In this document: piece by piece, positions 7,250 through 29,469 of the stretch | How positions within the stretch are numbered: the first letter of the stretch is position 1 | Layout of the letters: every line of letters begins with the position of its first letter | Assembly (NCBI RefSeq): GCF_018494065.1 | Contig: NZ_JABBFR010000001.1 | Span: forward strand, 248,205-280,204 | Length of the DNA stretch: 32,000 bases | Direction of reading: 5' to 3' | Source: Rosenbergiella gaditana | GTDB lineage: Bacteria > Pseudomonadota > Gammaproteobacteria > Enterobacterales > Enterobacteriaceae | Program-made: the position numbers and the translations under genes | The notes under the pieces: generated by a model | Told to the model about the DNA's origin: nothing | The model's input: the letters and a program-made list of their open reading frames with translations, nothing else | Database searches by the model: none

Positions 7250-8551
7250 CTAATTCAAATAGTGATTAATAAAAATAGCCGCTCTTTTAGTCACTTCAGG
7301 GAGAGACTTGACTTCTAGAGTCTCACTCTGACTATGAGCTCCCTTTCCCCAAGGGCCAAGGCCATCAAGACTGGCGCTAACATATTGTGCAATATAAGAA
7401 ATATCTGCCCCCCCACGTTCAGCAGCCGACACAGCCTGTAAGCTCGATCCCCCCAACGCCACACTAATATCGCTGAACTCAGCTAAAAGCTGCCTATTCT
7501 CATTTTTCTCCGACATAGCTGGCATTATATTGTTGAATATCAACTGGCTGGAGGTTAGTGGTAACGCGGACATCGTAATTTCACGCATTTTTTGCTCAAC
7601 CATACATTTCTGTTCATCTGATAAAAACCGTAAATCACCATGCACAAGTGTTTGAGCTGCAATGATTGTCTTCTGACCGCTGGCGTTACCGGTGTTTTGC
7701 TGCGTATCTTCCTTAACAGTCTGCCCTCCGAGAATAATGCCTGGATTAAGCGTTAACCCCGGAATATTTGAAAGGACAGTTCGAAAACTGTTTAGCACCC
7801 GTGCCGTTTCATAGATGGCACCATCCCCTGATGCAGCCTGAAATATTTTGGAGGAGTGTCCTGATTTACCACTGCTGGAAAGGTACCATTCGCTCAATCC
7901 TCGTCTTCCTGTCACCAGCTGATTTTCGGTAAGCGAAAATTCGAATCCCAGTGCAATATCGCTGCCCTGAGCGGCTTCCGTCAGTGCTTTACGTGAGATG
8001 GAGGTTGGTTTTTCTGCCTGTTCCTCATCCCCGGTAAGTACTACCGTTAGATTGGCATACTTCAATTTTCCGGCCTGATTCAGCGCCTTGAGTGCATATA
8101 AAATCGTGACGAGGCCCCCTTTATCATCAATGACTCCCGGTCCTGTTGCTGATAGGTGGTCTGGCGAAAGCGTAAATGACTGAAAAGGGCTATGGGAAGG
8201 AAAAACGGTATCCAGGTGGCCAATTATCAAAATTTTCTTTCCCGGACCGCTATGCGTAGCCACTAAACTACCGGCATGTTTCATAGAAGCGGGGAGATTG
8301 ACCCACTGTGTTTTGAAACCCAAATCATCTAATTCAATTCTGAATCGCTCCCCAACTTTTTCAACTCCGCGACGATTCCCCGTACCACTATTGATATTAA
8401 CCAAGTCCTCGAGCAGTTTTAGTTGGTTTGTTTTATGTTTATCAATGTAATTGATTAAAACGCTATCATCTGAATTTAACCTTGCATTTACTGCCGTGAT
8501 GCTGCTGAGACTGGACAGTATTAATACCAGAAATAATATTTTAGCTTTCAT
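7250..8551 (-). CDS. secreted M20-family metallopeptidase (carboxypeptidase G2-like)
   Basis: Signal peptide, then GHLDTVFP and GPGVIDDKGG motifs typical of M20 glutamate carboxypeptidases. Confidence 0.8.
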   Translation of the reverse strand: MKAKILFLVLILSSLSSITAVNARLNSDDSVLINYIDKHKTNQLKLLEDLVNINSGTGNRRGVEKVGERFRIELDDLGFKTQWVNLPASMKHAGSLVATHSGPGKKILIIGHLDTVFPSHSPFQSFTLSPDHLSATGPGVIDDKGGLVTILYALKALNQAGKLKYANLTVVLTGDEEQAEKPTSISRKALTEAAQGSDIALGFEFSLTENQLVTGRRGLSEWYLSSSGKSGHSSKIFQAASGDGAIYETARVLNSFRTVLSNIPGLTLNPGIILGGQTVKEDTQQNTGNASGQKTIIAAQTLVHGDLRFLSDEQKCMVEQKMREITMSALPLTSSQLIFNNIMPAMSEKNENRQLLAEFSDISVALGGSSLQAVSAAERGGADISYIAQYVSASLDGLGPWGKGAHSQSETLEVKSLPEVTKRAAIFINHYLN

Positions 8552-8929
8552 TTTTACTCTCCGGGCTGTACAGAGCCTGAATTTGATATGTCGGTGAGGG
8601 ACTGTAACCTGTGGTATCTGCTGTATCGCGGATACTGAGTTTTTACCTGCCGATAGTACAACACTTTCTGGTGCTGTTCGGGAACGGCCTATTTTCTGCA
8701 GTAACTACCCAACGTATGTGCCCGCTCCATTCCCTATTTCTGCCGCTGGCGTCAGATGCGACATTACGGCCATCAGGTCGATAAGCATTTACGTTACGTC
8801 ATTCATCGTGTGCTGTCACGTTTTGATTATGGCGTCAGTGTACCCTTATACATAACCATGATCTCTTCACAAGACGAGCACCCAGTTCAGCCTTCATTTC
8901 ATTTATTGCCGAATTTGTTTCTTTCTGAA

Positions 8930-9203
8930 GAAGCAGCTTCCTAGAGGATCGGTTTGAAAACCGGAATCAGAAGGGCAATTGTCAAGGGCGCTCCCCAGCG
9001 GACAAGGACTGTTTCCTTTTTGGTCCCGAAAAAGATCTCGGCTCCAACTGTAAGAATTCAGAAAATCAGACTTGGAGCCGTTTCCAGAGCCGTTTGTCAT
9101 CCCACATCGAATGTTTTCATCAGCCATCCTATAACCGCCAAAAGAAAAACAGCTACACCGATGAAAACCAGCTCTACACCATTTGTATCGTTACGCCTAG
9201 TGT
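8930..9203 (-). pseudogene. decayed 5'- and 3'-truncated copy of the prophage membrane-protein gene (homologue of 13838..14269)
   Basis: The nucleotide sequence aligns by eye with 13990-14262 at high but imperfect identity. Translated in the homologous frame it lacks a start codon and has in-frame stops (e.g. APSLIF*ILTVGAEIFFG, PIL*EAA). Confidence 0.75.
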
Positions 9204-9309
9204 TGATTCTGGTTCGTCTGGAGAAACGGGTAACGTAGAATCACTGTGATAGTCGCCAGTTAACGACCAGAGTCAACGCTCGCCGCCAGATTCCCCCTGC
9301 ATTCGCATT
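9203..9309. repeat. att-proximal tail repeat, copy 1 (pairs with 20445-20552)
   Basis: TTGATTCTGGTTCGTCTGGAGAAACGGGTAACGTAGAATCA...GATAGT.GCCAGTT.ACGACCAG.GTCAACG occurs at both places. In each case it runs into a dif/dif-like XerC arm. Confidence 0.85.
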
Positions 9310-9337
9310 AGTGCACATAATGTACAACAATTAAAAA
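9310..9337 (+). other. degenerate dif-like Xer site 1
   Basis: AGTGCACATAA-TGTACA-ACAATTAAAAA. The XerC arm matches dif at 9/11 positions and the XerD arm is degenerate. Confidence 0.6.
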
Positions 9338-9346
9338 ATGTTATAA

Positions 9347-9892
9347 GATTTCGGTGCATCAGGTAAAGGTTACTCCGTTTCACAGGCTCCCGGTCTTTGG
9401 CGAATTTATGACACCGATGGTACTTTTGTCAGACTGGAAGAAGCGCCTTTAGAATCACCGCAGATTGAGCCGACTGATATTGCGTTACTCGCAGCAGGTG
9501 TTTTCCGCATTTTCTTTGCTAGCAGGGTGTTACTGCAAAGCGGAGTCAGAACGGCCATCACTGTAAAACTTAGTCAGAGTACGGTCAGTTTTCTACGTGG
9601 GCGATTGAAGGCGGGGTTCTCAGCTCGCAGTCTTAAAATGACAGAAACTGCTGCGAAGCACATGCAGAACCCCGGTCGCTATGTCCCTTTACAAATTCAG
9701 GAAAAAGCTATCCGTTATGGCAGACGAATGCCTGATCCAAAGAAAAAACCAGGGCTTTTTCGCTATGAGACTGAAATGTATAGACTTGTTGAGAACAAAC
9801 AAGCTAAAGGAACATATTATTACAAAAAGTATACTCTCGAAGTCCTTGTTCGTGAGAAAGACTTGACAATCAGTCATTTCCAGTATTTTTAG
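9347..9892 (+). CDS. orphan C-terminal toxin domain fragment of a polymorphic toxin (DUF4258-like putative RNase)
   Basis: The frame is open from the stop at 9344-9346, immediately after dif-like site 1, with no ATG (the ORF track uses GTG 9527). The tail TETAAKHMQNPGRYVPLQIQEKAIRYGRRMPDPKKKPG resembles the H..R..(G)I....I..G...DP pattern of small CdiA/Rhs/WapA-type C-terminal nucleases. A small acidic ORF follows directly. Confidence 0.4.
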   Translation, partial: DFGASGKGYSVSQAPGLWRIYDTDGTFVRLEEAPLESPQIEPTDIALLAAGVFRIFFASRVLLQSGVRTAITVKLSQSTVSFLRGRLKAGFSARSLKMTETAAKHMQNPGRYVPLQIQEKAIRYGRRMPDPKKKPGLFRYETEMYRLVENKQAKGTYYYKKYTLEVLVREKDLTISHFQYF

Positions 9893-9900
9893 AGGTAATT

Positions 9901-10329
9901 ATGATTGATATTGAAGTTGGGATACTGAAATTTCAACTGTCACCTTATGAAAGAGAACATGCCGAAGAGGACCTATCAGACGACTCGATAAAGACGTTTG
10001 TTGAATATAAGCTGCCAGTATTAACGACACAGTACAGCACTGCATTTACGGTTCCTGAACTTATTGAGTTAAAGAAAGAAATTCAATCTTTCTATGAAGG
10101 TCTGATTAAACAGGAGCCTCGTCCTGATATATTTTTTGACAGTTTAGAACATCATTTTAGTTTACAGTTCAGGCAAGTTAGTCATCATGATATTGCAGAA
10201 GTAAATATTGTGATGAAACCAGAAGATAATGCAGACAGTGTCAAAGTCACCGACACATTTTATCTTGACCAGAGCTACTTTCCGGCGTTGCAGTCCGGCC
10301 TTGACGAGATGATTAACTGGCAAAACTGA
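9901..10329 (+). CDS. putative cognate immunity protein (WapI-like pattern)
   Basis: 142 aa, acidic, and starts 8 nt after the toxin stop. The C-terminal ..FYLDQSYFPALQSGLDEM.. resembles the DQSYL motif I recall for WapI-family immunity proteins. Confidence 0.5.
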   Translation: MIDIEVGILKFQLSPYEREHAEEDLSDDSIKTFVEYKLPVLTTQYSTAFTVPELIELKKEIQSFYEGLIKQEPRPDIFFDSLEHHFSLQFRQVSHHDIAEVNIVMKPEDNADSVKVTDTFYLDQSYFPALQSGLDEMINWQN

Positions 10330-10352
10330 CAGGAATAGCTTGTCTGCGCACT

Positions 10353-10380
10353 GGTGCGCATAATGTATGACGCTATGTCA
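10353..10380 (+). other. dif-like Xer site 2
   Basis: GGTGCGCATAA-TGTATG-ACGCTATGTCA. The XerC arm is perfect. The XerD side is degenerate, but a better XerD-like CTATGTCACAA lies 3 nt further on. Confidence 0.65.
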
Positions 10381-10395
10381 CAAAAGGGTTCTGAG

Positions 10396-10427
10396 CCATT
10401 CCGGTAGAATGGGGTTTACCGGAATGG
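10396..10427. repeat. perfect 11-bp inverted repeat (hairpin)
   Basis: CCATTCCGGTA-N10-TACCGGAATGG. Confidence 0.7.
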
Positions 10428-10532
10428 GGAGGGTTCGTTTATAATAAAGCGAATGAGTTAGAACTCCATACTGTACAGGGGTTGTAAGCGGGAACCCGCC
10501 AAAATTTTGTGGCGTCTGCCATTCTTAAGCTT

Positions 10533-10808
10533 TCAGCCTGATGACAGTGTCAGTCCGTCAATCATCGCGTCCAGATCGATCTCTTTCCCTTCAGTGATAA
10601 AAGTGTAATGCCCGTTTAAAAAGATATGCTGCCATGCGACGGGCGACATCCGTTTGAGGAACTCCAGCCCCCGGGTGTTACCGGTTGCTTCATATCTTTG
10701 CAACAATCGCGATAACAGGGCTGAGTTATAATAAATAATCACGATGCTGAGTAGCCGGCCACACTGATTGCTGATTTCGAGCTCTATGTCATTCTGGCCC
10801 GTCAGCTT
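10533..10808 (-). pseudogene. tnpA: Tn3-family transposase, C-terminal ~92 codons only
   Basis: ..LLSIVIIYYNSALLSRLL...LKRMSPVAWQHIFLNGHYTF matches the extreme C-terminus of Tn3-family TnpA. The frame is closed by a stop at 10809-10811. Confidence 0.75.
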
Positions 10809-10859
10809 CTATCAATGGTACGGTATCAATCTCTTTGATGGCCCCTCAAACGTACATTT

Positions 10860-11220
10860 ATGACTGAAATACGCATTGGCTATGCACGCTGCTCTACTGA
10901 CCGACAGGACCTGGCCGCACAGCAGGAAGCCCTCGTCAGCCTGGGCGTCTCCTCGGACCGAATTTATACCGAACGTGCTGGCGACGTTTGCCGAGTTTGA
11001 AGGTGATCTGATACGTCTGCGTACCAGAGAAGGTATGGCTATCGCCAGAGCAAAAGGCAAGCTGAAAGGTAAACAGCCAAAATTATCAGAGAAGCAGCAG
11101 CAGGAACTGTGTCGTATGCACGGTAGAGGGGAACATTCTATCAGTGATCTGGCAGAACTGTTTTCAGTATCGCGGCCGACCGTTTACCGGACGCTTATAC
11201 GAGGCAGAGAAAAGCAGTAA
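10860..11220 (+). pseudogene. tnpR: serine recombinase/resolvase with internal deletion and frameshift
   Basis: The N-terminus MTEIRIGYARCSTDRQDL (catalytic Ser region) in frame 0 stops at 10998-11000. The C-terminus VLATFAEFEGDLIRLRTREGM...SVSRPTVYRTL (HTH) continues in another frame. About 70 central residues are missing. Confidence 0.8.
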
Positions 11221-11246
11221 TCATTTTATTTAAACAAGGACGAATT

Positions 11247-11729
11247 ATGGCTCAGGATATTTTTATAAAAATTGATGGTATCGAAGGTGAATCTCAGGAT
11301 TCCACCCATAAAGGAGATATTGAGGTACTTAACTGGGACTGGTCCGTTAGTCAGACATCAAATATGCATTCTGGTAGTGGTGGAGGGGCGGGAAAATGTA
11401 CTGTTGAGGATTTTCATTTTGAGCACTATATCGACAAATCCAGTACTAACCTTCTTCAGTATTGCCTGACCGGAAAGCATATTCCCGAAGCAGTATTAAC
11501 AGTCAGAAAAGCGGGCGGCTCACCGCTGGAATATCTGCGCATTACCCTTCAGGAAATTATCATCACCGCCGTACATCCTGTTTATTACAACACCATGCGT
11601 GTACCACGCGAGGCGGTAAGCCTGGCGTTCTCCAGAGTACAAATGGACTATGTGTTGCAGAATGCAGAGGGAAGTACAGCAGGTACGGTTTCCATGGGAT
11701 ATGACATTAAAGCCAATGCAGCTATTTAA
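11247..11729 (+). CDS. hcp: type VI secretion tube protein Hcp (TssD)
   Basis: 160 aa. IFIKIDGIEGESQDSTHKGDIEVLNWDW...GGGAGK....DF.F.HYIDKSS..L...C..GKHI is the canonical Hcp1-family N-terminus. Confidence 0.9.
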   Translation: MAQDIFIKIDGIEGESQDSTHKGDIEVLNWDWSVSQTSNMHSGSGGGAGKCTVEDFHFEHYIDKSSTNLLQYCLTGKHIPEAVLTVRKAGGSPLEYLRITLQEIIITAVHPVYYNTMRVPREAVSLAFSRVQMDYVLQNAEGSTAGTVSMGYDIKANAAI

Positions 11730-11756
11730 GTACAGGCAATATAAAGGAATATAATT

Positions 11757-12379
11757 ATGTTATTCGTTGATAAAAATGGTTTAGTGGATGCAGAGCGAAT
11801 TATTGTCAAGCGATTCAGTACAATAGAGCGTGGCAAGCTGGACAAAGTGAACGGGATAATCGTTCATCAGACTAACAGTCCGACAGCCCAAAGCACATTC
11901 AACAGCTACAATCAAACCTCAGCGAATGGCGCTCATTTTTTAATAGACAAAGACGGTAAGATTTATCAGACAGCATCTTTGTTAAAGTAACCTGGCATGT
12001 AGGATTGATGCAATCCAGATGCTTTTTGAAAAAAAAATGTAAACCAACAGAGGTTAATCTTTTGGCTTTACATACTAAAAGTTACTGGAAGAGAAAAATA
12101 TCTCAACAAATATCTGATATAGAAAAAGGGAAAGAATTTCCTGACCGATTCCCAGGCAATACCGATAGTATTGGAATTGAAATTGTTGGACTTGCTATTG
12201 ATGTTAAAGGTAAACCAGAGCCTGTCTATGAAGCGGTTAATGATAAACAAAATGATTCTCTTAGATGGTTGATTGCTGAACTTGCTTCAACATTCAAAGT
12301 TTCTATGACTGAAATTTACAGACACCCTGATGTAGGCCGGAAAAATGAAACAGAAGCGGGTACAGCAGAATGGAAATAA
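11757..12379 (+). pseudogene. PGRP/Amidase_2-type N-acetylmuramoyl-L-alanine amidase, putative Hcp-linked T6SS effector, split by a 1-nt frameshift
   Basis: ORF1 ends ..GIIVHQTNS...GAHFLIDKDGKIYQTASLLK*. The next frame reads KVTWHVG...NTDSIGIEIVG...ND.Q..SL..L...L......I.RHPDV...KNETE. Together these form one Amidase_2 domain. The break lies at TTAAAG (11982-11987). Confidence 0.7.
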
Positions 12380-12753
12380 AGAAGATAGTATTCCTTGTTT
12401 TTTTATTCATCCCCACATTTACTCAGGCAAGGGTAGTAAATGAGATAAATATAATGGAAACAGGTGCCTGGGATAGTGATAACAGAGCTGAATATGAAAA
12501 AGAAGGTTGCAAGACATTTAATCCGACTAAAGAACAACTAATCCAATATTTCTCTCAGGCTCAGGAATCATCCTCCAGTGGTAACTGGATAAATGAGTAT
12601 TATTCGCCTTGTATTGCATCTGGTAAAGTTACTTTTAAGGATGGAGATTCAGGTGCGTGGAGAATACATTCCAGTGGACTCGGATGGGTGGATTTTATTA
12701 ATAAAACAAGACGATATTTCTACTTTACTGACAATGATTGGGAGAAAGAATAG
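12370..12753 (+). CDS. secreted/periplasmic small protein, putative immunity to the amidase effector
   Basis: Signal peptide MEIKKIVFLVFLFIPTFTQA. The start overlaps the effector stop (ATGGAAATAA). Two Cys residues. The position is typical of T6SS peptidoglycan-effector immunity genes. Confidence 0.55.
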   Translation: MEIKKIVFLVFLFIPTFTQARVVNEINIMETGAWDSDNRAEYEKEGCKTFNPTKEQLIQYFSQAQESSSSGNWINEYYSPCIASGKVTFKDGDSGAWRIHSSGLGWVDFINKTRRYFYFTDNDWEKE

Positions 12754-12762
12754 ACAATACAT

Positions 12763-12785
12763 AAAGCCTGTTAAAAACAGGCTTT
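12763..12785 (+). terminator. rho-independent terminator after the immunity gene
   Basis: AAAGCCTGT-taaaa-ACAGGCTTT followed by a T-rich tract (TTTATTCAAGTTTTATTT). Confidence 0.7.
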
Positions 12786-13017
12786 ATTCAAGTTTTATTT
12801 AGAGCGACGTTTCACAATACGTTATGGTAAATCATAGGAGTGTAAAATGGCTGATGGTGAAAAGTTGACAGTTATATTGCCTGGCGAAATGCTGTGTTAC
12901 CTGAAATCTGTCTACCTGTAGCCTGAAAATTGACATCATTTCCTTGTAATAAGAATTCAGCACACAATCAGACCTAAGGCCGCAAGACATTTCAACTATT
13001 ATGCGTACCGTTATCTA

Positions 13018-13049
13018 GGTGCGCATAATGTCGACGCATTATGTTGAAA
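13018..13049 (+). other. dif-like Xer site 3 (left junction of the filamentous prophage) with extended central region
   Basis: GGTGCGCATAA-TGTCGACGCA-TTATGTTGAAA. The XerC arm is perfect and the XerD arm matches at 9/11, but the spacer is 10 bp instead of 6. An inverted XerC-like arm TTATGCGTACC lies at 12999-13009. Confidence 0.65.
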
Positions 13050-13050
13050 A

Positions 13051-13081
13051 GGCCGCTGCGAAAATATCTCCCGCAGCGGCC
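13051..13081 (-). terminator. rho-independent terminator of the antisense accessory operon
   Basis: GGCCGCTGCG-N11-CGCAGCGGCC, a 10-bp stem. On the minus strand it is followed by TTTTCAA. Confidence 0.7.
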
Positions 13082-13118
13082 TCTTTAGCATAATGTCATT
13101 GTGCGAACCAATTATTTA

Positions 13119-13463
13119 TTAATAATCATGACGACCTTGGCTCCGTTCAATTTCATCAATCATCGCATCAACATCTTGTTTAAATTGAAAGTTTAGATGA
13201 CTCCATCCGAAATCACCTGCTTCGTAGGTGAACTCATGCCCTTTTTTTGTTGTCAATTTAAAGAAGTAATCACCAGATCCATAACCGATTAGTTGAATGT
13301 CGCACCAGTAAAGATATGTTATGTCTAATACAGCCATGTCAGGCGAATTCATTTCAGAAAAAACATGCGCTTTGCTTGCACCCGGCACAGGCATATTGTA
13401 AATATACTCACCGCCATGTGCAGTTCTAACCTTTACTTTATAAACCCTTGATTTTTTAGCCAT
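13119..13463 (-). CDS. hypothetical soluble protein (prophage accessory gene 3)
   Basis: 114-aa ORF, last gene before the strong terminator. I recognise no motif. Confidence 0.5.
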   Translation of the reverse strand: MAKKSRVYKVKVRTAHGGEYIYNMPVPGASKAHVFSEMNSPDMAVLDITYLYWCDIQLIGYGSGDYFFKLTTKKGHEFTYEAGDFGWSHLNFQFKQDVDAMIDEIERSQGRHDY

Positions 13464-13482
13464 TTATGCCGCCGCGTTAATT

Positions 13483-13884
13483 TTATAAATCATTTCGCAT
13501 TGATTCTATTAGTTTATTAAAAGCATCGTGTCTTTCTTCTCTTGGTCCATCATTCGTATCGACAATTTTTTGCGAATAGTGGACGACCTGTTTTGAGCCA
13601 AACAAAGAACAATGCGTCTGCCATAGTGCATATTCTTTTGATGCTTCTTCCGATGGGGAAATTGCAGACTTGTGAATGGATGACAATAACCCTAAATATG
13701 CATTTCTTTTTTCTTCGTATAACCGTTCATCTTTTTTTGTTTTTTTATTTAAGAGGCTGGTAATGGCTGAATTTAACATAGTCCCTATCCCTAACCCCCC
13801 GATAACCCCTAATATAATGTTGTAATCCATACTATTATTACCAGTAATATGAATTTCTTCTGTGCCACCAATAAAGCAGCCCAT
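13483..13884 (-). CDS. hypothetical single-pass membrane protein (prophage accessory gene 2)
   Basis: TM segment YNIILGVIGGLGIGTMLNSAITSLL, then KKTKKDE and a helical soluble part. The real start may be ATG 13830 (M19), 7 nt after the upstream stop. Confidence 0.5.
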   Translation of the reverse strand: MGCFIGGTEEIHITGNNSMDYNIILGVIGGLGIGTMLNSAITSLLNKKTKKDERLYEEKRNAYLGLLSSIHKSAISPSEEASKEYALWQTHCSLFGSKQVVHYSQKIVDTNDGPREERHDAFNKLIESMRNDL

Positions 13885-14269
13885 ATCCTACAATAAGAAT
13901 CCCGAAGAACATCAGGGACATTCCCCAACCAGTTCCGTACCACGAAACCATATCATCGAAAACCAATCCGCCAACGTCACGAACTCCAGCAGCTTCTTTA
14001 AGGATCGGTTTGAAAACCGGAATCAGAAGGGCAATTGCCAATGGCGCTCCCCAGCGAACAAGGCCAGTTTCCATTTTGATCCCGAAGAAGATCCCGGCTC
14101 CTACTGCAAGAATCCAGACAATCAGGCTTGGGGCCGTTTCCAGAGCCGTTTGCCATCCAACATCGAATGTTTTCATCAGCCATCCTATAACCGCCAAAAG
14201 AAAAACAGCCACACCGATGAAAACCAGCTCTACACCATTTGTTTCGTTACTCCTACTCATCTCTTTCAT
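13838..14269 (-). CDS. hypothetical four-TM inner-membrane protein (prophage accessory gene 1)
   Basis: 143 aa with four hydrophobic segments. A decayed second copy lies at 8930-9203, so the gene belongs to the conserved element backbone. Confidence 0.6.
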   Translation of the reverse strand: MKEMSRSNETNGVELVFIGVAVFLLAVIGWLMKTFDVGWQTALETAPSLIVWILAVGAGIFFGIKMETGLVRWGAPLAIALLIPVFKPILKEAAGVRDVGGLVFDDMVSWYGTGWGMSLMFFGILIVGYGLLYWWHRRNSYYW

Positions 14270-14369
14270 CCTTTTTTTTGCATAGAAATTTTAGCCGCTA
14301 AAATTCTTCACATCGCCGCGAAGCGGTTCGGGGTTCTGTGACACCCGAACTTTGGTATGGATTCCCATA

Positions 14370-14585
14370 CTACCGATGATGCATTGTCATGATTTCCCGC
14401 TCGACTCGTGCTCTCTCGGTAAGCTCTTCTGCGGCTTCTTTTGCATAATCATCAATCAGATGATTAACAATGTCTGTCCATGAGATCTGTGATCCAGCCT
14501 TCTGACTGGCATCTATCGCCATCCTCTCCAGCTTCATCTTCCGCTCAGCAGTAATGGCCATTGTTGTTCTTTTAGGTTTTTGCAT
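14370..14585 (-). CDS. small ribbon-helix-helix-like DNA-binding protein, putative prophage repressor
   Basis: MQKPKRTTMAITAERKMKLERMAIDAS..ISWTDIVNHLIDDY fits a strand-helix-helix layout. It is divergent from gII across a repeat-rich region. I chose the start at ATG 14585 (AGGTG RBS). Confidence 0.5.
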   Translation of the reverse strand: MQKPKRTTMAITAERKMKLERMAIDASQKAGSQISWTDIVNHLIDDYAKEAAEELTERARVEREIMTMHHR

Positions 14586-14626
14586 TTGTTCACCTGGATC
14601 ATAGAAGGTCATTTGTATGTGAGTAT

Positions 14627-14715
14627 ACATGCGTACCAAATACCCATGCAGTTATGCTTGCATACATGCATTCACATGCGATGTTATTTTTTTACGGCAT
14701 ACATGCATACATGCA
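14627..14715. promoter_or_regulatory. ACATGC / TGCAT-AC-ATGCA repeat cluster between repressor and gII (operators and/or origin iterons)
   Basis: ACATGC occurs at 14627, 14664, 14674, 14701 and 14709. The palindromic unit TGCATACATGCA occurs at 14660-14671 and 14704-14715, with a near copy (G instead of the first T) at 14696-14707. Confidence 0.5.
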
Positions 14716-15844
14716 TAGGGGTTCTTGGGTGTTTTACGACTGGCTCTCGATTGAACAGGATTTTGGTTATCAGCTTCCTATTCTTGGTGATGTTGCATAT
14801 CAGCGCATTCACCTTGAAACGGGTGAGGGTAGCTCACTTTCCCAGCCAGTATTTCAGCATAAGGGTTCATTTTGCGATGTTGTCTCAGTCTCTATAAGAG
14901 GCTCGGTACTTAAGATTACGGGTAATCCTTCACGCTGGAACAGACTTGATAACCTTTTTGGTCTGACTTCTGTTGATGCTTGTGTCGCTGTTTATAACAG
15001 CATCCTCTTTGATTTGGGCTTACCGCCTTTTACAAAATGTACAAAAACTTTTTTTAGCCAAACTAAAGAGAATGAAAAAGTAACGCTTATTTCTGATGGT
15101 GCAATTATTCGTGAGCTACATATCACCTCAAATAAATCCACTGGAAAAGGCAATGAGGATGAATATATATCAGGCTTATCAACGCAACCTTATAGAAATA
15201 GTGTTCCTAGACTTCATAGTAATGGTAAGTCAGTTGATTCGTTGTCTAAAAAGGGTAATGTTAACTTAATATACCCGACTGTTTATAATAAAGGGCATGA
15301 ACTTGCATTACATTCCCTGACTAAAATAAAAAATAAATTTGGTTCTGATTCAGAGCAAGTGAAACATATTAATAAAGTAATTGAATATTGCGAAGAGAAT
15401 GGAATCGTTCGTTTTGAACAGAAATTAAAATCACGTTATTTGCAGAAAAATAATCTTTTATTCTGGGGGCTATCTGATTACTCCATATTAAACGAGTTAT
15501 ATAATACATTTTTGAATTTAGATGAAAAACTATCGGTGAATGCTATGGAATTTGAAACTATAAGCGAACATTTAATCTCACAGGGTATTGTTGATACGGT
15601 AAGAGCGGCTAATACAACTTCTATGTATGCCATTCAATGGTTTCATGGTCACTCTTTCGATTTTTCAAAGTCCGCTGTAAAGATTCATCGAGCAAGGCTT
15701 AGAAGAATTGGTATCGATATTGCGCAGCGCTGCAATGTAGCTAAGTTTTCACCTGTTATCACCAGAGAAGTCAGAGAAATTAAAGTTAAAGATTGTGTTA
15801 TTCCATCATGGTATTTGAAGCCATCACATGTAAAAGTTGCTTAA
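14711..15844 (+). CDS. gII: rolling-circle replication initiator (Ff gene II protein homologue)
   Basis: The position and the motif VRFEQKLKSRYLQKNNL (f1 pII: VRFEARIKTRYLKSFGL). The start is uncertain (ATG 14654, ATG 14711 or GTG 14729). Confidence 0.75.
   Translation: MHRGSWVFYDWLSIEQDFGYQLPILGDVAYQRIHLETGEGSSLSQPVFQHKGSFCDVVSVSIRGSVLKITGNPSRWNRLDNLFGLTSVDACVAVYNSILFDLGLPPFTKCTKTFFSQTKENEKVTLISDGAIIRELHITSNKSTGKGNEDEYISGLSTQPYRNSVPRLHSNGKSVDSLSKKGNVNLIYPTVYNKGHELALHSLTKIKNKFGSDSEQVKHINKVIEYCEENGIVRFEQKLKSRYLQKNNLLFWGLSDYSILNELYNTFLNLDEKLSVNAMEFETISEHLISQGIVDTVRAANTTSMYAIQWFHGHSFDFSKSAVKIHRARLRRIGIDIAQRCNVAKFSPVITREVREIKVKDCVIPSWYLKPSHVKVA
15545..15844 (+). CDS. gX: putative pX (in-frame internal start within gII)
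   Basis: Internal ATG at SVNAMEFET.., collinear with the f1 pX start (GDSMNIYDD). This is an inference by analogy only. Confidence 0.35.
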   Translation: MEFETISEHLISQGIVDTVRAANTTSMYAIQWFHGHSFDFSKSAVKIHRARLRRIGIDIAQRCNVAKFSPVITREVREIKVKDCVIPSWYLKPSHVKVA

Positions 15845-15856
15845 TGGAGATATGTA

Positions 15857-16135
15857 ATGATTAAAATTGAAATTAAACCATCACAAGCTGTAGCCGACAC
15901 TCGTAGCGGTGTATCTAAAACAACTGGCAAAGCTTATACGATCCCTGAGCAATCAGCGTATATTTTCCTTGGTGGTGACTATCCACAGATGTTCAAGATT
16001 AATCTTGAGAACGGACAACCTCCATATCCGGCAGGGCTTTACTCTCTTCATGAGTCCAGTATTTATGTAGGTGACTTTCAAAAACTAAGAGTCGGAAAAA
16101 TAGTACTTGTCCCTTATCAAGATTCATCTAAGTAG
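15857..16135 (+). CDS. gV: ssDNA-binding protein (Ff gene V protein homologue)
   Basis: MIKIEIKPSQA..TRSGVS...GQPPYPAGLYSLHESS..VGDF compared with f1 pV MIKVEIKPSQA..TRSGVS...GQPAYAPGLYTVHLSS..VGQF. Confidence 0.9.
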   Translation: MIKIEIKPSQAVADTRSGVSKTTGKAYTIPEQSAYIFLGGDYPQMFKINLENGQPPYPAGLYSLHESSIYVGDFQKLRVGKIVLVPYQDSSK

Positions 16136-16144
16136 ATTATTAAT

Positions 16145-16231
16145 ATGGATGAATTAACCCAGATTCTTATAGCATCCGGTATTGTCATTTCTTTTGGGCT
16201 AGGAGCAATAACGGCGGGGGTACTTCGCTAA
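16145..16231 (+). CDS. gVII: minor coat protein pVII-like (28 aa)
   Basis: Not in the ORF track. MDELTQILIASGIVISFGLGAITAGVLR is a hydrophobic mini-protein at the Ff gVII position, and its stop overlaps the next start (TAATG). Confidence 0.6.
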   Translation: MDELTQILIASGIVISFGLGAITAGVLR

Positions 16232-16326
16232 TGTATATTGCCTATTTCTTTGGGGCTTATGCCTTTGGCTTAGCTCTTTTCTATGCGGTCGGTTCATTTA
16301 AATCATTAACTGACCGTCTAATGTAG
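16231..16326 (+). CDS. gIX: minor coat protein pIX-like (31 aa)
   Basis: Not in the ORF track. MYIAYFFGAYAFGLALFYAVGSFKSLTDRLM is a hydrophobic mini-protein at the Ff gIX position. Confidence 0.6.
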   Translation: MYIAYFFGAYAFGLALFYAVGSFKSLTDRLM

Positions 16327-16355
16327 TTTTCTATGTAATCAATGGAGTTATTTTT

Positions 16356-16595
16356 ATGAAAATCTTATCTACCGTAAAATCAAAAATCGCTGTTGCTTCA
16401 ACTGCACTTTTTGTTTCTGCAAGCTGTTTCGCAGCGGGTGAAGGTGCATCTACTGATTATGCCGGGCAGGCTATGGACTCTCTGTTAACTCAGGCTAACG
16501 ATCTTATTGCTAAAGTCTGGCCTGTTGTAGTCGCTGTTGTCGGAGCTGGTCTGGCTATCCGTCTTTTCAAAAAGTTCTCCTCAAAAGCTGTTTAA
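16356..16595 (+). CDS. gVIII: major coat protein (pVIII homologue)
   Basis: Signal peptide ending ..CFA. The mature part has an acidic N-terminus, a hydrophobic core and the basic tail [12 protein letters not shown] (f1: IKLFKKFTSKAS). Confidence 0.9.
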
Positions 16596-16603
16596 TATCT
16601 ATC

Positions 16604-16622
16604 AGGGGCACTTGCTGCCCCT
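16604..16622 (+). terminator. terminator after gVIII
   Basis: AGGGGCA-cttgc-TGCCCCT followed by TT. This is the same position as the Ff post-gVIII terminator. Confidence 0.55.
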
Positions 16623-16642
16623 TTAAATTAAAGCGGGCCATT

Positions 16643-17872
16643 ATGAAAAGGGAAATATTATTTCTTTCCGCTCTTTGTTTACCTTCATTTTCACATGCTG
16701 ACTCATGGGAAAGCGTTTCTAAATCTACCTATCAAAGCTCTGCATATTCAGAAAGCAAGCAAATAGTAAATCAGGATGGTACTCAAACCACTGTATATTA
16801 TATTGATGCCGCTATGCAGTCCTCAGCTTGTCAGGCTGCTAAAGACAGTGCTAAAAGTGTATTTGAACAGGTCAAAGTAACCTATCAGGGCGTTTGGCCT
16901 GATTCTGAATTTCGTCTCGTTACGGCTGATGCTTGTACTTATAATGGTTCTCCCGGCCAGCAAGATAAATTCTGGTCTTTAGCTGCTTATATCGTTGGCG
17001 ATATTCAACGCACTATTCCCGATGAAAAACCTTCCGAACCTACGCCAGAAGAAATTTGTGAAGCAAAACCACCTGAAAATGGTGTGTTCAATAATGTCTA
17101 TTCTGATTCTGGTGATCGTTATATTTATTATAATGGCTGCGAGTACGAAGCCACTGGCGTTATTGTTTGCCAGAGTGATAGCTCTGTTTGCGCTGCAACG
17201 TGGAAGCCAACCGGAACGGTAGCGGACTCATCCGATAAACCTTCTTCTCCTGCTGGCGATGGCGGTGACACCGGAGGAGATGAGGCGGATAGTGGCGATA
17301 ATGGAGGTAGCGATACAGGCGGCAGTTCTGGCAGTAGTAATGGTTCAAATCTTACCAAAGATGATATTCAGTCAGCTATGGAGGGCGCTTCGCCTAAAGT
17401 CGCCAGTGAAATTTATGACAAGCTAACGGAAAAAGATACCTCATCTGATGATAAAAAAACGTCTGATGAACAGACTAAAAATAATATAAATCGTCTTGGT
17501 GACTCTATAAATAATCTTACCCGTGGTGCTGCGCGTTTTGCTGACGCTTCCGGTGGTGACTCCCGTTATGGAAAAGGTGACTCTGAATTAGATAGTGCTT
17601 CAAATTTGGCAGAATCTGAATTAGGGATAGCTAAAGAATCTCATGGGGCATTATGGGAAGCATTTTTAAATAAAGGTGCGATGCTGCCTAATTTACCTAA
17701 TGGTAATGGTTGTTCTGACTTAATTATTTTTCCAGGAGAGGTTTATCAAATTGATATCGAATGCGATAAATTACTTTCTATTAAAGATGCACTTTCATGG
17801 ATCTTTTACTGCCTTACATTTTGGTATGTATTTACATCTTTAACTTCATTACTTCGTAAAGGGGATGAGTAA
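16643..17872 (+). CDS. gIII: minor coat/adsorption protein (pIII-like)
   Basis: Signal peptide, Cys-rich N-domains, a Gly/Ser/Asp-rich linker ([31 protein letters not shown]) and a hydrophobic C-terminal anchor. Confidence 0.8.
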
Positions 17873-18213
17873 TGCCTTTCTTATTGGGTATTCCAGCACT
17901 GTTACGTTTTCTTATTGGTCTTGTTCCTTTATTGATTGGCTATGTGGCGAGTTTTATTGCTCGCCTTGCAACTAAAACAGGGTTGATTGCTTTTGCACTT
18001 GTTGCATTAATTACAACTACTGTGACGCTCTTAATGCAATATCTTGCCGAGGTTATGTACAACGGTCTTCCTGCTGATTTTTCCCATTTAATGGCATCTG
18101 TATTACCTGACCATTTTCAGGCTTGCATTAATGTCATTATGGTTACTCGTATTAGTGTTTTCGTCTTCGACTTAAAACAAAAATTCCTTGATTATGCGAA
18201 TAGGGTTATATAA
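17872..18213 (+). CDS. gVI: minor coat protein pVI homologue
   Basis: [14 protein letters not shown].. compared with f1 MPVLLGIPLLLRFL... 113 aa, with a TAATG overlap with gIII. Confidence 0.85.
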   Translation: MPFLLGIPALLRFLIGLVPLLIGYVASFIARLATKTGLIAFALVALITTTVTLLMQYLAEVMYNGLPADFSHLMASVLPDHFQACINVIMVTRISVFVFDLKQKFLDYANRVI

Positions 18214-19308
18214 ATGGCGGTTCATGTTGTAACAGGTAAATTAGGCTCAGGTAAAACACTGGTCAGCGTGTCCAGAATACAGGAAAGATTAGCTAAGGGA
18301 TGTCCTGTTGCCACCAATTTAGACCTTAAATTACATAATATGCCGATGGTAGGTCGCTATGCAAAAAAAACGCGCGTCATTCGCATTCCTGATAAACCAT
18401 CGTTAAATGATTTATTGGCAATTGGCATAGGCAATACGTCTTATGATGAATCCCGTAATGGTCTTTTAGTGCTTGATGAATGTGGTACTTGGTTTAATTC
18501 CCGTTCATGGGGCGACAAGGATAGACAACCTGTTATTGACTGGTTTTTACATGCCCGTAAATTAGGTTGGGACATCATATTTCTCATCCAGGATGTTTCC
18601 ATCATGGATAAACAGGCGCGATTAGCTCTTGCTGAACATGTTGTTTATTGTCGTCGATCGGATAAATTAAATATACCTATTATTGGCTCTCTTATTAATC
18701 TTCTTTCAGGTTCACGTTTCTCTTTACTAAAGGTACATTTTGGTATTGTTAAATATGGCGACAATGTAAATTCAATCACTGTTGACAAATGGATATATAC
18801 TGGTAAATCTCTTTACTCCGCTTATAACACCAAGCAGACTTTCACAGACAATTATTCTCTCGGTGCTTACTCATATCTACCTCCTTTCATCACTCATGGT
18901 CAGTTTTCAGTTAATAGAGGATTTAAATACCATATGCGCCTGACGAAAATTTATTTTCGCAAATCCAATCGATTAATATTAATACTTTCATTTCTGATAT
19001 TGGGGCTTGGAATAGGTTTCTGGCTAAAATCCGAGGAGATTACTAATCAAACTTCGGCTATTAAATCTGTTAGAGCTGAACAGGCGAGGGCGGTAACGCC
19101 TAATAATGCCGATGATTTACCGAGACTTTCTATCAACTCTTTCACTCAACTTGGTTTTGATGTTTCCGTTACCTTTATTGATGCTAGGGGTATGAAATAC
19201 CAGTATTTTGATTTAATCAAAGATGGTTATTCCGTTGATATTAAAGATCCTTGCCGGATTGACATCAGAAAAGACCGTTATTTACAGACTGTAACTTGTC
19301 AGGAGTAA
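18214..19308 (+). CDS. gI: assembly ATPase pI (Zot family)
   Basis: MAVHVVTGKLGSGKTLVSV (Walker A), LLVLDECGTWFNSRSW, IDWFLHARKLGWDIIFLIQD and LAEHVVYCRR are nearly identical to f1 pI blocks. Confidence 0.92.
   Translation: MAVHVVTGKLGSGKTLVSVSRIQERLAKGCPVATNLDLKLHNMPMVGRYAKKTRVIRIPDKPSLNDLLAIGIGNTSYDESRNGLLVLDECGTWFNSRSWGDKDRQPVIDWFLHARKLGWDIIFLIQDVSIMDKQARLALAEHVVYCRRSDKLNIPIIGSLINLLSGSRFSLLKVHFGIVKYGDNVNSITVDKWIYTGKSLYSAYNTKQTFTDNYSLGAYSYLPPFITHGQFSVNRGFKYHMRLTKIYFRKSNRLILILSFLILGLGIGFWLKSEEITNQTSAIKSVRAEQARAVTPNNADDLPRLSINSFTQLGFDVSVTFIDARGMKYQYFDLIKDGYSVDIKDPCRIDIRKDRYLQTVTCQE
18934..19308 (+). CDS. gXI: putative pXI (internal in-frame start at Met241 of pI)
   Basis: MRLTKIYFRK aligns with f1 pXI start MKLTKIYLKK, at the same codon number. 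This is an inference by analogy. Confidence 0.4.
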   Translation: MRLTKIYFRKSNRLILILSFLILGLGIGFWLKSEEITNQTSAIKSVRAEQARAVTPNNADDLPRLSINSFTQLGFDVSVTFIDARGMKYQYFDLIKDGYSVDIKDPCRIDIRKDRYLQTVTCQE

Positions 19309-19315
19309 TATTACA

Positions 19316-20395
19316 ATGCGCTCACTTCTTATTGTTTTTTTATTTTTTTGTTCATTTTGTATTTCTGCTGAAACTGTTAATCTCAATAATTCATCTGTTC
19401 GTTCTTTTGTACAATGGTATTCATCAAAAACGGGTAAGCCCGTTATAGTTAATCCGGATGTTAAAGGAGCCGTGACAGTTTTTAATGCAGATGTAAATCC
19501 GACCAATATTGATGATTTTTTTAAATCAGTATTAAATGCCAACGGCTTTGTGATGCTTTCCGGTAATCCTGCTTTGGTATCTTTGCCGTCTAAACTACCA
19601 TCACAGATGGCGGCTGAACCAGATGATACAGATAATAATCTTTATGATGCCATACAATCCGATTCATCTTCTCAACCCGTTTCTGTGGCTTTTACCGTCA
19701 GAAATTTTAAGCTGACAAAAGTACGATCGTCTGATATTCAGCAACTGGTAAAAATTTACCTCGATTCTAATGGCGGGGGGAATGTCGTCGACTATCCCGG
19801 CAATAATTCGCTTCTCGTTTCTGCGCCGGACGAATTACTGCCAGTTCTGACTGATTTTATCAATTCCGTAGACGTTGCTCGTGATCAGGTTTTAATTCAG
19901 TCTCTGATGTTTGAAACCAGCTTGTCCGATGGTGTTGATTTGTCGTTTGCTGCGGGTTCTGCATCTGGGCATAAGGTAGCAGGGGGCTTTAATACTTCGG
20001 CGTTGGGTAGTGCATTGTCGACGGCGGGCGGCTCTTTTGGCATTTTTGATGGTAATGTACTGGCCTTATCCTTGCGTGCGGTACAGAGTAACTCCCGCTC
20101 TAAGGTGATTTCGACGCCCCGAATTCTTACCCAGTCTGGCCAGACCGGGTACATTTCTGTTGGTAAAAATGTACCCTTTATCACAGGCAAGGTTACGGGT
20201 GAATCCGCTGGGGTAAATAATCCATTCCAGACTATCGAACGTCATGATGTTGGCGTGTCTCTAAAGGTGACGCCTGTTGTCATGGGGAACGGTCAGCTTG
20301 TTCTTACGATTGATACCCGCGCTGACTCAATTAGCAATGATGAACAGGCATCCGATATTATTACTAATGATTTACCAACGATAAAGGGCGAGTGA
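19316..20395 (+). pseudogene. gIV: secretin pIV homologue, C-terminally truncated
   Basis: Collinear with f1 pIV up to ..ADSISNDEQASDIITN (about 20368), e.g. NVPFITGKVTGESAGVNNPFQTIERHDVGVS. It then diverges (DLPTIKGE*) and lacks the final secretin-domain segment (f1: QRSIATTVNLRDGQTLLLGGL...). Confidence 0.75.
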
Positions 20396-20444
20396 TGGGA
20401 TGAACAAGCCTGAGTGGTGAAGTCAGGCCGTTCATTTACTGCAT

Positions 20445-20552
20445 TTGATTCTGGTTCGTCTGGAGAAACGGGTAACGTAGAATCATCATCGATAGTAGCC
20501 AGTTGACGACCAGTGTCAACGAATCACGGCACATTCCATCTACATGCGCATT
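20445..20552. repeat. att-proximal tail repeat, copy 2 (pairs with 9203-9309)
   Basis: See copy 1. This copy ends ...CATGCGCATT immediately before the dif XerC arm. Confidence 0.85.
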
Positions 20553-20580
20553 GGTGCGCATAATGTATATTATGTTAAAT
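20553..20580 (+). other. dif: chromosomal dif site (XerC/XerD dimer-resolution site)
   Basis: GGTGCGCATAATGTATATTATGTTAAAT is a 28/28 match to the E. coli dif consensus. Confidence 0.9.
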
Positions 20581-21156
20581 TGCATTTGTGGTTTATAAGT
20601 CAGTTATTTTACCCTAGCTCCTATAGCCGCTTCGTCATTCCTTAGGTTCTATTCAAGCTATCGTTAACGCCACCCTATTCACCGAATACTGTACTTCGCC
20701 CAATGAGCTTTCTCAGTACGCAATTGTTGATATAGAGAATTACTCAACGAAAAATTTCTTTGAACCTCTAATGGACAAGTTTACTGCGCTGGAAGATAAT
20801 CCAGTGAGTGAACCTTGACATGATAGTTTTTCAGTTTCCGGTATTGGCGACAAGTTACCCTATAACTCGACTCAAGTAACAACACGCGCTAAAGGCTTTA
20901 ACCTGTCATGCATTTTTTGTTTAAGGTAAATTTAACAAACCATATTTGGCTAAACGCTTTACTGTAAAACCTGCGTCATTCTTCATTAGCATGACAAACG
21001 GGATTATAGAGTGCGTGTTTGATAAACTCGCACTGATAGTCAACAGTATTTTGTCGTACCAAAGATATTGACTGAAGTGGATACGCAAGTAAGAACGCCT
21101 ATACCTCCTATTCTTTAGGATCCTTGCCCTCCCCTAACGATCCTTTAATAGTAGAG

Positions 21157-28340: not shown

Positions 28341-29468
28341 GTGATATCTGTCCCTGCCGTCGATGGGCTGTGTGCGCTCACTCGCCCGTATCAGTGTGAT
28401 TCAAGTAGTGAGCAGCTGTTCCATAACGCGATGCTGGAGATTGTTTCTTTTCATGTGAAAAATACGTCGGGGTACGCGCAATGGTTAACCCATCACCACA
28501 TAAACCCAGACAATCCACAGCTGAACTCATGGGGCGATCTGCCGCCGATATTTGCTAATTATTTCAAGCGTCATCTTTTGCTCAGTAATACCGGCCAGGA
28601 CGCGCTGGAACTGACGTCCTCAGGGACTAGTGGGCAAAAAAGCCGAATGCGTTTTGACGAGCGTAGCATAAAAGCCGCACAAGGTATGGTCGACCATATC
28701 TTTCATCACTATGGCTGGGTTAAACCAGATACGCCCTGTAATTATCTCCTGCTGAGTTACGAACCTAACGATATCATTACGTTAGGTACGGCCTACACCG
28801 ACCAATTTTTATGTAAATATGCGCCAGTCAAACAGGCTGTGTATGCTCTGAGAGATACCGGGAAAGGTCATGAGTTCGATCCATTTGGTGTTATTCAGGC
28901 GCTACAAACCTTCTCACGGGATGATGCACCCGTACGTATTCTAGGGTTCCCTGCGTTTATGTGGTTCGTTCTTGAAAGAATGCGCGAGATGAATTTGCCG
29001 CCGCTCACCCTGCCGCCAGGTTCATTAACATTTTTCGGCGGCGGCTGGAAAACGCATGCGGACAAAGAAATACCAAAGGCAACATTATATGCACGGCTTG
29101 GTGAACAACTGGGGTTACCTGATGCCTATTGTCGGGATGGCTATGGCTCTGTTGAACACTGTGTTCCTTATGTCGAATGCGCCCATCACCACTTTCATAT
29201 CCCGGTATATGCCAGAGCATGGATCCGCGATACCCGCACATTTGAGATTAAAGGCTACGGATCGAGGGGATTTCTGCAATTTGTCTCGCCGTATATTACC
29301 TCCAGCCCGGCCCATAGTATTGTGATGAGCGATTTAGCCATCCTGCATCGCGCCCATGAATGCGGGTGTGGAACTGATACAGACTGGTTTGAACTGCTTG
29401 GCCGCGCCAGTCAGCATACAGCCCGGAGCTGTGCATTAGCGGCCTCGGAGTTAATACAAGGAAAGTAA
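28341..29468 (+). CDS. LuxE-like acyl-protein synthetase / acyl-adenylating enzyme
   Basis: 375 aa, GTG start with an AAGGA RBS. TSSGTSGQKSRM P-loop-like motif and overall LuxE-family length and layout. Confidence 0.65.
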   Translation: MISVPAVDGLCALTRPYQCDSSSEQLFHNAMLEIVSFHVKNTSGYAQWLTHHHINPDNPQLNSWGDLPPIFANYFKRHLLLSNTGQDALELTSSGTSGQKSRMRFDERSIKAAQGMVDHIFHHYGWVKPDTPCNYLLLSYEPNDIITLGTAYTDQFLCKYAPVKQAVYALRDTGKGHEFDPFGVIQALQTFSRDDAPVRILGFPAFMWFVLERMREMNLPPLTLPPGSLTFFGGGWKTHADKEIPKATLYARLGEQLGLPDAYCRDGYGSVEHCVPYVECAHHHFHIPVYARAWIRDTRTFEIKGYGSRGFLQFVSPYITSSPAHSIVMSDLAILHRAHECGCGTDTDWFELLGRASQHTARSCALAASELIQGK

Positions 29469-29469
29469 T

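Follow-up and report, generated by a model that had tools for sequence, protein, structure and literature searches.

Remains of a probable Tn3-borne type VI secretion cassette with Hcp, an Amidase_2-type effector and a putative immunity protein near dif in Rosenbergiella gaditana

The DNA analysed here, a 32-kb stretch of a Rosenbergiella gaditana contig (hereafter the window), carries a perfect dif site of the Escherichia coli type (28/28 matches, positions 20553-20580) and, to its left, a short module that is bounded by two dif-like sites in direct orientation (starting at 10353 and 13018). This segment, module B, holds the remains of a Tn3-family transposon, an hcp gene, a disrupted gene for a peptidoglycan amidase and a gene for a small protein with a signal peptide. 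An earlier note on the same DNA had interpreted it as a cassette of hcp, a PGRP-type amidase effector and a periplasmic immunity protein, and every feature listed there was recovered, namely the dif-like sites, a Tn3 end, a tnpA tail (91 codons), a broken tnpR, hcp, the amidase and the overlapping signal-peptide gene.

The hcp (tssD) gene (11247-11729, plus strand) is intact and encodes a protein of 160 aa that matches PF05638 over the entire model (positions 1-129 of 129, E = 2.4e-41, 141.5 bits at a cut-off of 23.5), while its score against TIGR03344 (54.3 bits) lies slightly below the cut-off of 58.9. The protein is 89% identical to Hcp of related cassettes in Erwinia mallotivora and Serratia plymuthica, and its 90% cluster includes E. 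mallotivora proteins named Hcp; cluster neighbours of the window proteins come from Erwinia sp. OLTSP20, Pantoea agglomerans, Erwinia mallotivora, Enterobacteriaceae bacterium LUAb1 and Tatumella morbirosei, names that point to a host probably within the Erwiniaceae. After a gap of 27 nt follows the putative effector gene (11757-12379, plus strand), an Amidase_2 pseudogene spread over two frames (11757-11990 and 11960-12379), whose stop is overlapped by 10 nt by the putative periplasmic immunity gene (12370-12753, plus strand), an arrangement kept in Pantoea and Morganella. The immunity gene is intact and encodes 127 aa starting with MEIKKIVFLVFLFIPTFTQA followed by R, which was called a Sec-type signal peptide by inspection rather than by a dedicated predictor; the signal-peptide-like N-terminus and two invariant Cys residues are conserved in the family alignment. 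Although the structural model of the protein reaches a predicted local distance difference test score (pLDDT) above 90 over the mature part, structure search with it returned nothing below E = 0.75, and no relative was found in Pfam, NCBIfam, PHROG or the PDB, which answers the earlier note's suggestion of profile and structure searches with 12370-12753. Exact look-ups of the window Hcp and immunity proteins in other contigs returned nothing on record.

Comparison with L085, a 99%-identical relative used as reference for the lesion and for the dif context, revealed that the reading frame of the effector is not intact. One T is missing after 11983 (TT in the window, TTT in L085; TCTTTGTTAAAG against TCTTTGTTTAAAG), which shifts the frame at codon 76 and creates a premature TAA at 11988-11990, and restoring this one T yields a protein of 207 aa. 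The repaired amidase is matched by 872 database proteins, the best at 75% identity, and nearly all of the matches listed are 199-207 aa long in a single frame. An intact relative of 207 aa (P0148), 89% identical, occurs in other samples within a trio of hcp, amidase and 127-aa gene. We consider it unlikely that an assembly or sequencing error produced the 1-nt deletion and that the locus is a working Hcp-effector-immunity unit with an intact effector. Such an error would fit a lesion of one base in a short T run, the survival of all catalytic-type invariant residues, the TTT read in the 99% relative and the fact that only one assembly carries the window sequence; a TT/TTT run is, however, short for a typical homopolymer error, and tnpR and tnpA of the same module are broken as well. 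Moreover, L085 has independently lost the same gene by deletion, as would be expected if selection on the effector were relaxed in this lineage. A 1470-bp deletion (window 10331-11800) has removed from L085 the left dif-like site of module B and the Tn3 remains as well as hcp and the first ~15 codons of the toxin gene, so that its effector is destroyed by a lesion of its own while the immunity gene is intact and its product 98% identical. Two independent toxin-killing lesions with the antidote left intact fit the retention of an orphan immunity gene. As the effector is a pseudogene, the locus is not a working weapon; with the effector dead and hcp and immunity gene intact, it could provide at most a spare Hcp and protection against relatives that fire the same toxin.

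Both profile and model comparisons place the effector in Amidase_2. Its two halves score 34.1 and 30.1 bits against PF01510 (cut-off 26), and an intact 75% homolog scores 67.7 bits. A PDB sequence search with the family profile gave marginal AmpDh2 matches only (E = 0.05), which made a fold search necessary, and for this an AF2 model of the 75% homolog P0001 (pLDDT 74, predicted template modelling score 0.73) was compared by Foldseek. AmpD was the first match (E = 1e-5, template modelling score 0.50-0.56), and further matches comprised the endolysin amidases PlyL, XlyA and LysC together with AmpDh2, PGRP-SD and AmiD at 12-18% identity. The Amidase_2/PGRP-like assignment of the earlier note is thus borne out by both halves of the pseudogene and by the predicted fold of its homolog. 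A papain-like or NlpC/P60 cysteine peptidase domain of the Tae type was not found, the sole Pfam match and all fold matches being Amidase_2. The family-invariant residues H37, E142, H190, K196 and E200 are all kept in the window copy, and H37 (motif VHQT), E142 (GIEIVG) and H190 (RHP) align to the catalytic motifs of AmpDh2. The family spans ~168 residues on the 131-position Pfam model, which indicates extra sequence between the conserved motifs, and the additional stretch between WHVG and GIEIVG holds two invariant Cys residues. The N-terminus of the effector (MLFVDKNGLVDAER) is without a hydrophobic leader.

To describe the genomic setting of the family, loci with amidase relatives were surveyed with one genome per species (at least 296 loci), and adjacency was counted in the best 80 of these. 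An hcp gene was scored if a homolog of the window Hcp ended within 250 nt upstream (76 of the 80 loci had room for it), and an immunity gene if a homolog of the 127-aa protein started within 300 nt downstream of the amidase (79 loci). By these criteria 42/76 loci have hcp directly upstream, 75/79 have an immunity homolog directly downstream, and 10 loci contain extra tandem immunity-like copies; this synteny supports the cassette as such. In Pantoea agglomerans, Morganella, Serratia plymuthica, Erwinia persicina, an Erwinia rhapontici megaplasmid and several metagenomic contigs, the trio forms an isolated island among unrelated genes. The genome of E. rhapontici 1SR contains at least four amidase cassettes (L005, L006, L010 and L024), three of them chromosomal and one on a plasmid, and at L006 two amidase genes lie side by side. 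We also noted two to four tandem immunity-like genes after one effector at L006, L020, L046 and L077, some with effector fragments, and these arrays look like orphan immunity islands.

These contexts bear on a different view, in which the amidase is a housekeeping enzyme of the AmpD/AmiD type or the remnant of a phage endolysin, its linkage to hcp is incidental and no type VI secretion system (T6SS) toxin is involved. Such an origin, which we consider very improbable, would agree with AmpD and phage endolysin amidases as the best structural matches, with hits to PHROG endolysin families at E = 1e-14, with public annotations that name some members AmpD, and with the adjoining filamentous prophage. 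However, identity to these enzymes is only 14-18% and the NCBIfam AmpD score is 29.8 where the cut-off is 143. The likeness to AmpD and to endolysins exists at the level of the fold only. The signal-peptide partner and hcp recur at the frequencies given above, together with tandem extra immunity genes, and several copies can share one genome, as in E. rhapontici. No phage lysis genes lie near the trio in the gene tables read, nor are lysis or other phage genes close by in the contexts read, and filamentous phages use no endolysins. A leaderless small enzyme with a signal-peptide partner, an adjacent hcp and orphan partners is the standard signature of Hcp-associated periplasmic T6SS pairs such as Tse/Tae. 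In the intended mechanism, the ~23-kDa effector would be carried inside the ring formed by its cognate Hcp, in the lumen, and the loaded Hcp would be fired by a T6SS encoded elsewhere, whereupon the effector would reach the periplasm of a neighbour and cleave the amide bond between N-acetylmuramic acid (MurNAc) and L-Ala in peptidoglycan, while the immunity protein would block it in sibling cells.

Upstream of hcp, the remains of a Tn3-family transposon begin with a left terminal inverted repeat (IR) at 10478-10515 (plus strand; 38 bp, beginning GGGG: GGGGTTGTAAGCGGGAACCCGCCAAAATTTTGTGGCGT), which shares 37/38 positions with the IR of a Tn3-family element that a Serratia fonticola plasmid carries; homology to the plasmid element starts exactly at the GGGG end, and the flanks outside diverge. 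The adjacent tnpA remnant (10533-10808, minus strand) comprises the last 91 codons and the stop and covers PF01526 positions 344-389 of 389. It is 96.7% identical on the protein level (10536-10808) to residues 924-1014 of the plasmid TnpA and 94% identical on the nucleotide level. The tnpR remnant for a serine resolvase (10860-11220, plus strand) retains residues 1-40 and 103-190 in two frames, with the N- and C-terminal parts of PF00239 plus HTH_7, and has suffered an internal deletion of 220 bp near 10972, which also shifts the frame, relative to the full-length tnpR of Erwinia tracheiphila (L061). In both the S. fonticola plasmid element and the window, tnpA and tnpR are divergent.

The link between transposon and cassette emerges from the relatives. 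In E. tracheiphila L061 a full-length tnpR directly precedes hcp, and the junction of the tnpR 3' end with hcp is shared by the window, E. tracheiphila, E. mallotivora, S. plymuthica and E. persicina. In addition, an inverted copy of the IR lies ~100 nt past the immunity gene in S. plymuthica (L017/L089-92; 29/38 positions) and past the immunity gene in the JGI metagenome contig L097 (32/38, with 31/32 in the outer 32 nt); we estimate the chance of a match of at least 29/38 in the DNA searched at ~1e-4. The matching right IR after the immunity gene in relatives leads us to conclude that the cassette is, as pieced together across genomes, probably the cargo of a Tn3-family transposon. The left IR, the shared tnpR-hcp junction and the inverted IR together point to an ancestral unit that would have had the order IRL-tnpA-res-tnpR-hcp-amidase-immunity-IRR, with IRL and IRR as left and right IR. 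In the window copy res and the right IR are gone, as are most of tnpA and part of tnpR.

Sliding comparisons further suggest that the window copy is itself recombinant. From 11230 to ~11850 the window shows ~90% DNA identity to the Tn3-linked cassettes (L015, L017 and L061), whereas beyond ~11900, as far as the immunity gene extends, its identity is 75-80% to the cassettes of Pantoea, Erwinia AnSW2-5 and Morganella and only 35-60% to the Tn3-linked group; the switch falls at ~11850-11900. The proteins follow the same pattern. Identity to the Tn3-linked group is 82-89% for Hcp, 90-95% for amidase residues 1-40, 58-59% for the rest of the amidase and 31-33% for the immunity protein, compared with 62-68%, 49-54%, 71-77% and 65-67%, respectively, for the Pantoea/Erwinia/Morganella group. 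Between the window and L085 there are six synonymous differences, all in 11832-11858, and almost none thereafter. The identity switch and these clustered differences indicate a crossover near VHQT that joined an hcp-proximal segment to a toxin-immunity segment. Judged from these identities, tnpR, hcp and the first ~35-45 amidase codons would be of the Tn3-linked type and the remainder with the immunity gene of the Pantoea/Erwinia/Morganella type. As a general rule across all loci, co-variation of the amidase N-terminus with Hcp was not supported (Spearman 0.22, p = 0.16), and the mosaic appears limited to the closest relatives of the window.

With respect to the surroundings, three sites, each with a XerC arm and a central region, share the orientation of dif and start at 9310, 10353 and 13018 (sites 1, 2 and 3); including the true dif, four matches to the XerC arm and the start of the central region compare with 0.28 expected in shuffled sequence. 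Site 2 (10353-10380, plus strand) consists of the XerC arm GGTGCGCATAA plus TGTAT and a degenerate right half. It equals the true dif across the first 16 nt and diverges thereafter, and may represent the left-hand junction that an Xer integration leaves. Between site 2 and the transposon end lies a backbone of 97 nt (10381-10477), with homology to the S. fonticola Tn3 element beginning only at 10478. On the other side, a hairpin directly 3' of the immunity gene (12761-12787), with a T-rich stretch after it on the plus strand, is a likely terminator, and the non-coding right-hand backbone (12788-13017, 230 nt) is without a Tn3 IR and is contiguous with dif in L085. Site 3 (13018-13049, plus strand) combines a XerC arm, a 10-nt spacer and a XerD-like arm, TTATGTTGAAA, that matches at 9/11 positions.

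The 90 nt at 13011-13100 recur at the left ends of filamentous prophages in E. coli and are likewise found between tandem filamentous prophages there. L085 aligns to window 7697-10330, jumps to 11801-13031 and then runs into a perfect dif that shares the XerC arm of site 3. This alignment indicates that a filamentous prophage occupies 13032-20552 and became integrated at dif within the lineage of the window, that the right end of module B abutted the true dif before this integration, and that the prophage accounts for the right half of site 3 and for the hairpin at 13037-13095. The left half of site 3 is therefore best assigned to the module and dif side and its right half to the prophage attachment site (attP), and the hairpin at 13037-13095 would be part of the prophage left end rather than of module B. 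The dif context claimed in the earlier note is thereby substantiated, since L085 has the right end of the module fused to a perfect dif with no prophage in between.

Integrative mobile elements exploiting Xer (IMEX) exchange on the XerC side, which leaves a good XerC arm with a foreign right half at the left junction and regenerates a functional dif on the right. Sites 1-3 each show this pattern of a good XerC arm next to a foreign right half, and under this model the order of arrival would be a prophage remnant (8932-9300), module A (9338-10352), module B and finally the prophage. Presence and absence can be seen for the prophage (window versus L085) but not for module B. Of the two layers of mobility proposed earlier, the Tn3 passenger is upheld by the tnpR-hcp junction and the right IRs of relatives, whereas independent Xer mobility and a Tn3-then-Xer order are hypothetical. 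A rival account holds that module B was never Xer-mobile itself, that sites 9310 and 10353 are junctions of earlier filamentous prophages that have since degraded, and that the cassette arrived via Tn3 and/or homologous recombination. We regard it as a serious possibility, if clearly the less probable one. Directly left of site 1 lies the prophage remnant 8932-9300, the 8 nt that flank site 2 on its left (TGCGCACT) are similar to the right end of the prophage (TGCGCATT; 96% over 24 nt), and the backbone between sites 2 and 3 that belongs neither to Tn3 nor to the cassette amounts to only ~340 nt. Recombination in the cassette is clear, and dif-like sites flank none of the homologous cassettes in the 83 loci scanned. 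Exact scans of metagenome and viral contigs for the site-2 junction likewise gave no match. On the other hand, site 2 is built exactly as an Xer left junction, with XerC arm and central region followed by a foreign right half, this right half differs from that of the prophage, and the backbone at 12754-13060 matches no phage record. As a separate observation, conservation extends 8 nt to the left of dif-like sites 1, 2 and 4 (9302-9325, 10345-10368 and 20545-20568), where the sequence reads TGCGCAYT/TTCGCATT. With the XerC arm these nucleotides form a near-palindrome, ATGCGCA..TGCGCAT, a candidate component of attP in these elements.

Overall, we read module B as a decayed T6SS pack of Hcp, Amidase_2 effector and periplasmic immunity protein that is Tn3-borne, recombinant and situated in an Xer array at dif, and we assign this reading a probability of about 75%. 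Several points weigh against it. The larger open reading frames (ORFs) scanned in the 32-kb window include no T6SS core gene, as the earlier note had stated; those outside module B belong to housekeeping genes, to a gene for a HipA-like kinase and to a complete filamentous prophage. In ~45% of the family loci hcp is not directly upstream, which implies that dependence on Hcp may not be universal. The third zinc ligand of the amidase is not securely aligned, with E200 a guess only, and the frameshift call rests on a single assembly. A right IR was not detected in the window at up to 14 mismatches, and a complete Tn3::hcp transposon with both IRs and intact tnpA was absent from the fetched loci and from a plasmid search with the cassette; this search yielded no more than five records, and close to the Erwinia megaplasmid copy that was inspected there are no Tn3 genes. 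Finally, we infer T6SS dependence, secretion, Hcp binding, amidase activity and neutralisation for this family from sequence.

Among the closest known systems is AmpDh3 (PA0807) of Pseudomonas aeruginosa, an Amidase_2 enzyme that reportedly is delivered by a T6SS and hydrolyses prey peptidoglycan; its action on the prey cell wall is cited in PMC12494544. It shares with the window family the Pfam superfamily Amidase_2, the proposed MurNAc-L-Ala chemistry and the target compartment, and structures of its paralog AmpDh2 are among the fold matches. Similarity is nevertheless marginal, with E = 0.05 to AmpDh2 by family profile and AmpDh3 itself not recovered, and the window family differs by its size of ~200 aa, its extra sequence with two invariant Cys residues, its direct linkage to hcp and an immunity family without known relatives. 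AmpDh3 is larger and is not known to be encoded beside hcp. The Tae1-4 effectors (Tse1, Ssp1/2, Atu4347 and others) resemble the window protein as small peptidoglycan effectors acting in the periplasm; unlike the Amidase_2 protein of the window, they are peptidases of the cysteine type, which cleave inside stem peptides or between them. Tae effectors adjoin signal-peptide immunity genes, often in hcp operons (PMC4096383). Atu4347 was considered as an Amidase_2 effector of an hcp operon and rejected, as it belongs to Tae family 4 (PMC4096383). In Pseudomonas fluorescens MFE01 an amidase lies next to hcp3, and Hcp3 contributes to T6SS killing (PMC5256989). This locus also holds vgrG3 and other genes, its amidase is uncharacterised, and a Tn3 or dif context is not reported for it. 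The expectation that an Hcp-linked Amidase_2 effector would be less charted agrees with these comparisons, as Tae1-4 are not Amidase_2 and the literature searched gave only AmpDh3 and the uncharacterised MFE01 amidase.

With regard to mobility, TnXax1 of Xanthomonas (PMC6304161) has a Tn3-family backbone (IRs, tnpA, tnpR) with non-resistance passenger genes. It resembles the window element in carrying virulence or competition cargo on such a backbone, whereas the window cargo is a T6SS Hcp-effector-immunity trio directly after tnpR, of which only decayed copies were seen. The literature searched contained no report of a Tn3-family element with an Hcp-effector-immunity trio and no experimental work on the amidase and immunity family of the window. 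For the dif context, T6SS vgrG effector-immunity clusters flanked by dif sites are known from Neisseria subflava (PMC10210955). Tandem elements at dif, direct dif-like sites and a filamentous phage as the newest arrival recall the IMEX arrays, i.e. CTX/TLC in Vibrio and the gonococcal genetic island (GGI) in Neisseria; module B differs in that no excision, circular form or empty site was seen and that its non-cargo backbone is only ~340 nt.

We therefore present an uncharacterised effector and immunity family, seen here as a relic copy of limited functional importance. With at least 296 loci in Erwinia, Pantoea, Serratia, Morganella, Burkholderia, Cupriavidus, Variovorax and others, the family would, if our reading is true, represent a second, Hcp-linked Amidase_2 route into T6SS warfare beside AmpDh3, and the immunity fold, being without a solved relative, would be a useful target for structural and inhibitor work. 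The window and L085 together, with two independent toxin losses and the antidote kept, offer a compact example of immunity outlasting the weapon. More tentatively, at somewhat less than even odds, we propose a Tn3-family transposon that carries a portable T6SS munition, namely its own Hcp, an uncharacterised Amidase_2-fold toxin and an immunity protein for which Pfam, NCBIfam, PHROGs and the PDB gave no relative. Here, the ~40 hcp-proximal toxin codons would travel with Hcp and the remainder with the immunity gene, replicative transposition, together with recombination at a conserved motif, would re-pair carriers and toxins, and Xer capture at dif would be possible. Were this true, effector sets could move by replicative transposition together with their own Hcp, and Tn3 carriage could explain the orphan hcp islands scattered among housekeeping genes.

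Several neighbouring features complete the picture of the window. The filamentous prophage (Inoviridae, 13032-20552) is complete, located at dif and absent from L085; it encodes gII-like, gV, gIII, gVI-like, gI/Zot and gIV secretin genes as well as three accessory ORFs on the minus strand (13119-14269), and its kin are the Erwinia PEar phages, I2-2 and IKe. A second filamentous prophage has left a remnant (8932-9325) that terminates in dif-like site 1, where the XerC arm has the variant form AGTGCACATAA. Within it, 8932-9199 shares 91% identity with 13988-14255, and 9203-9243 repeats 20445-20485 without a mismatch; no left junction survives for this remnant. Module A (9338-10352), between dif-like sites 1 and 2, contains an open frame without start codon (9362-9892) that has no family match and a WapI-like immunity gene (9901-10329; PF24716, E = 1e-13), and looks like an orphan polymorphic-toxin C-terminus with its immunity cassette. 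To the right of dif, a 56-nt inverted repeat with 91% complementarity has one arm at 20769-20824, just right of dif, and the other at 21751-21806, inside the gene for the HipA-like kinase with an N-terminal helix-turn-helix (21157-22461, minus strand). Further away, an ecotin gene for a serine protease inhibitor is located at 1670-2203, and adjacent genes for a LuxE-like acyl-protein synthetase and a LuxC-like acyl-CoA reductase occupy 28341-30915, with no other lux gene among the ORFs scanned.

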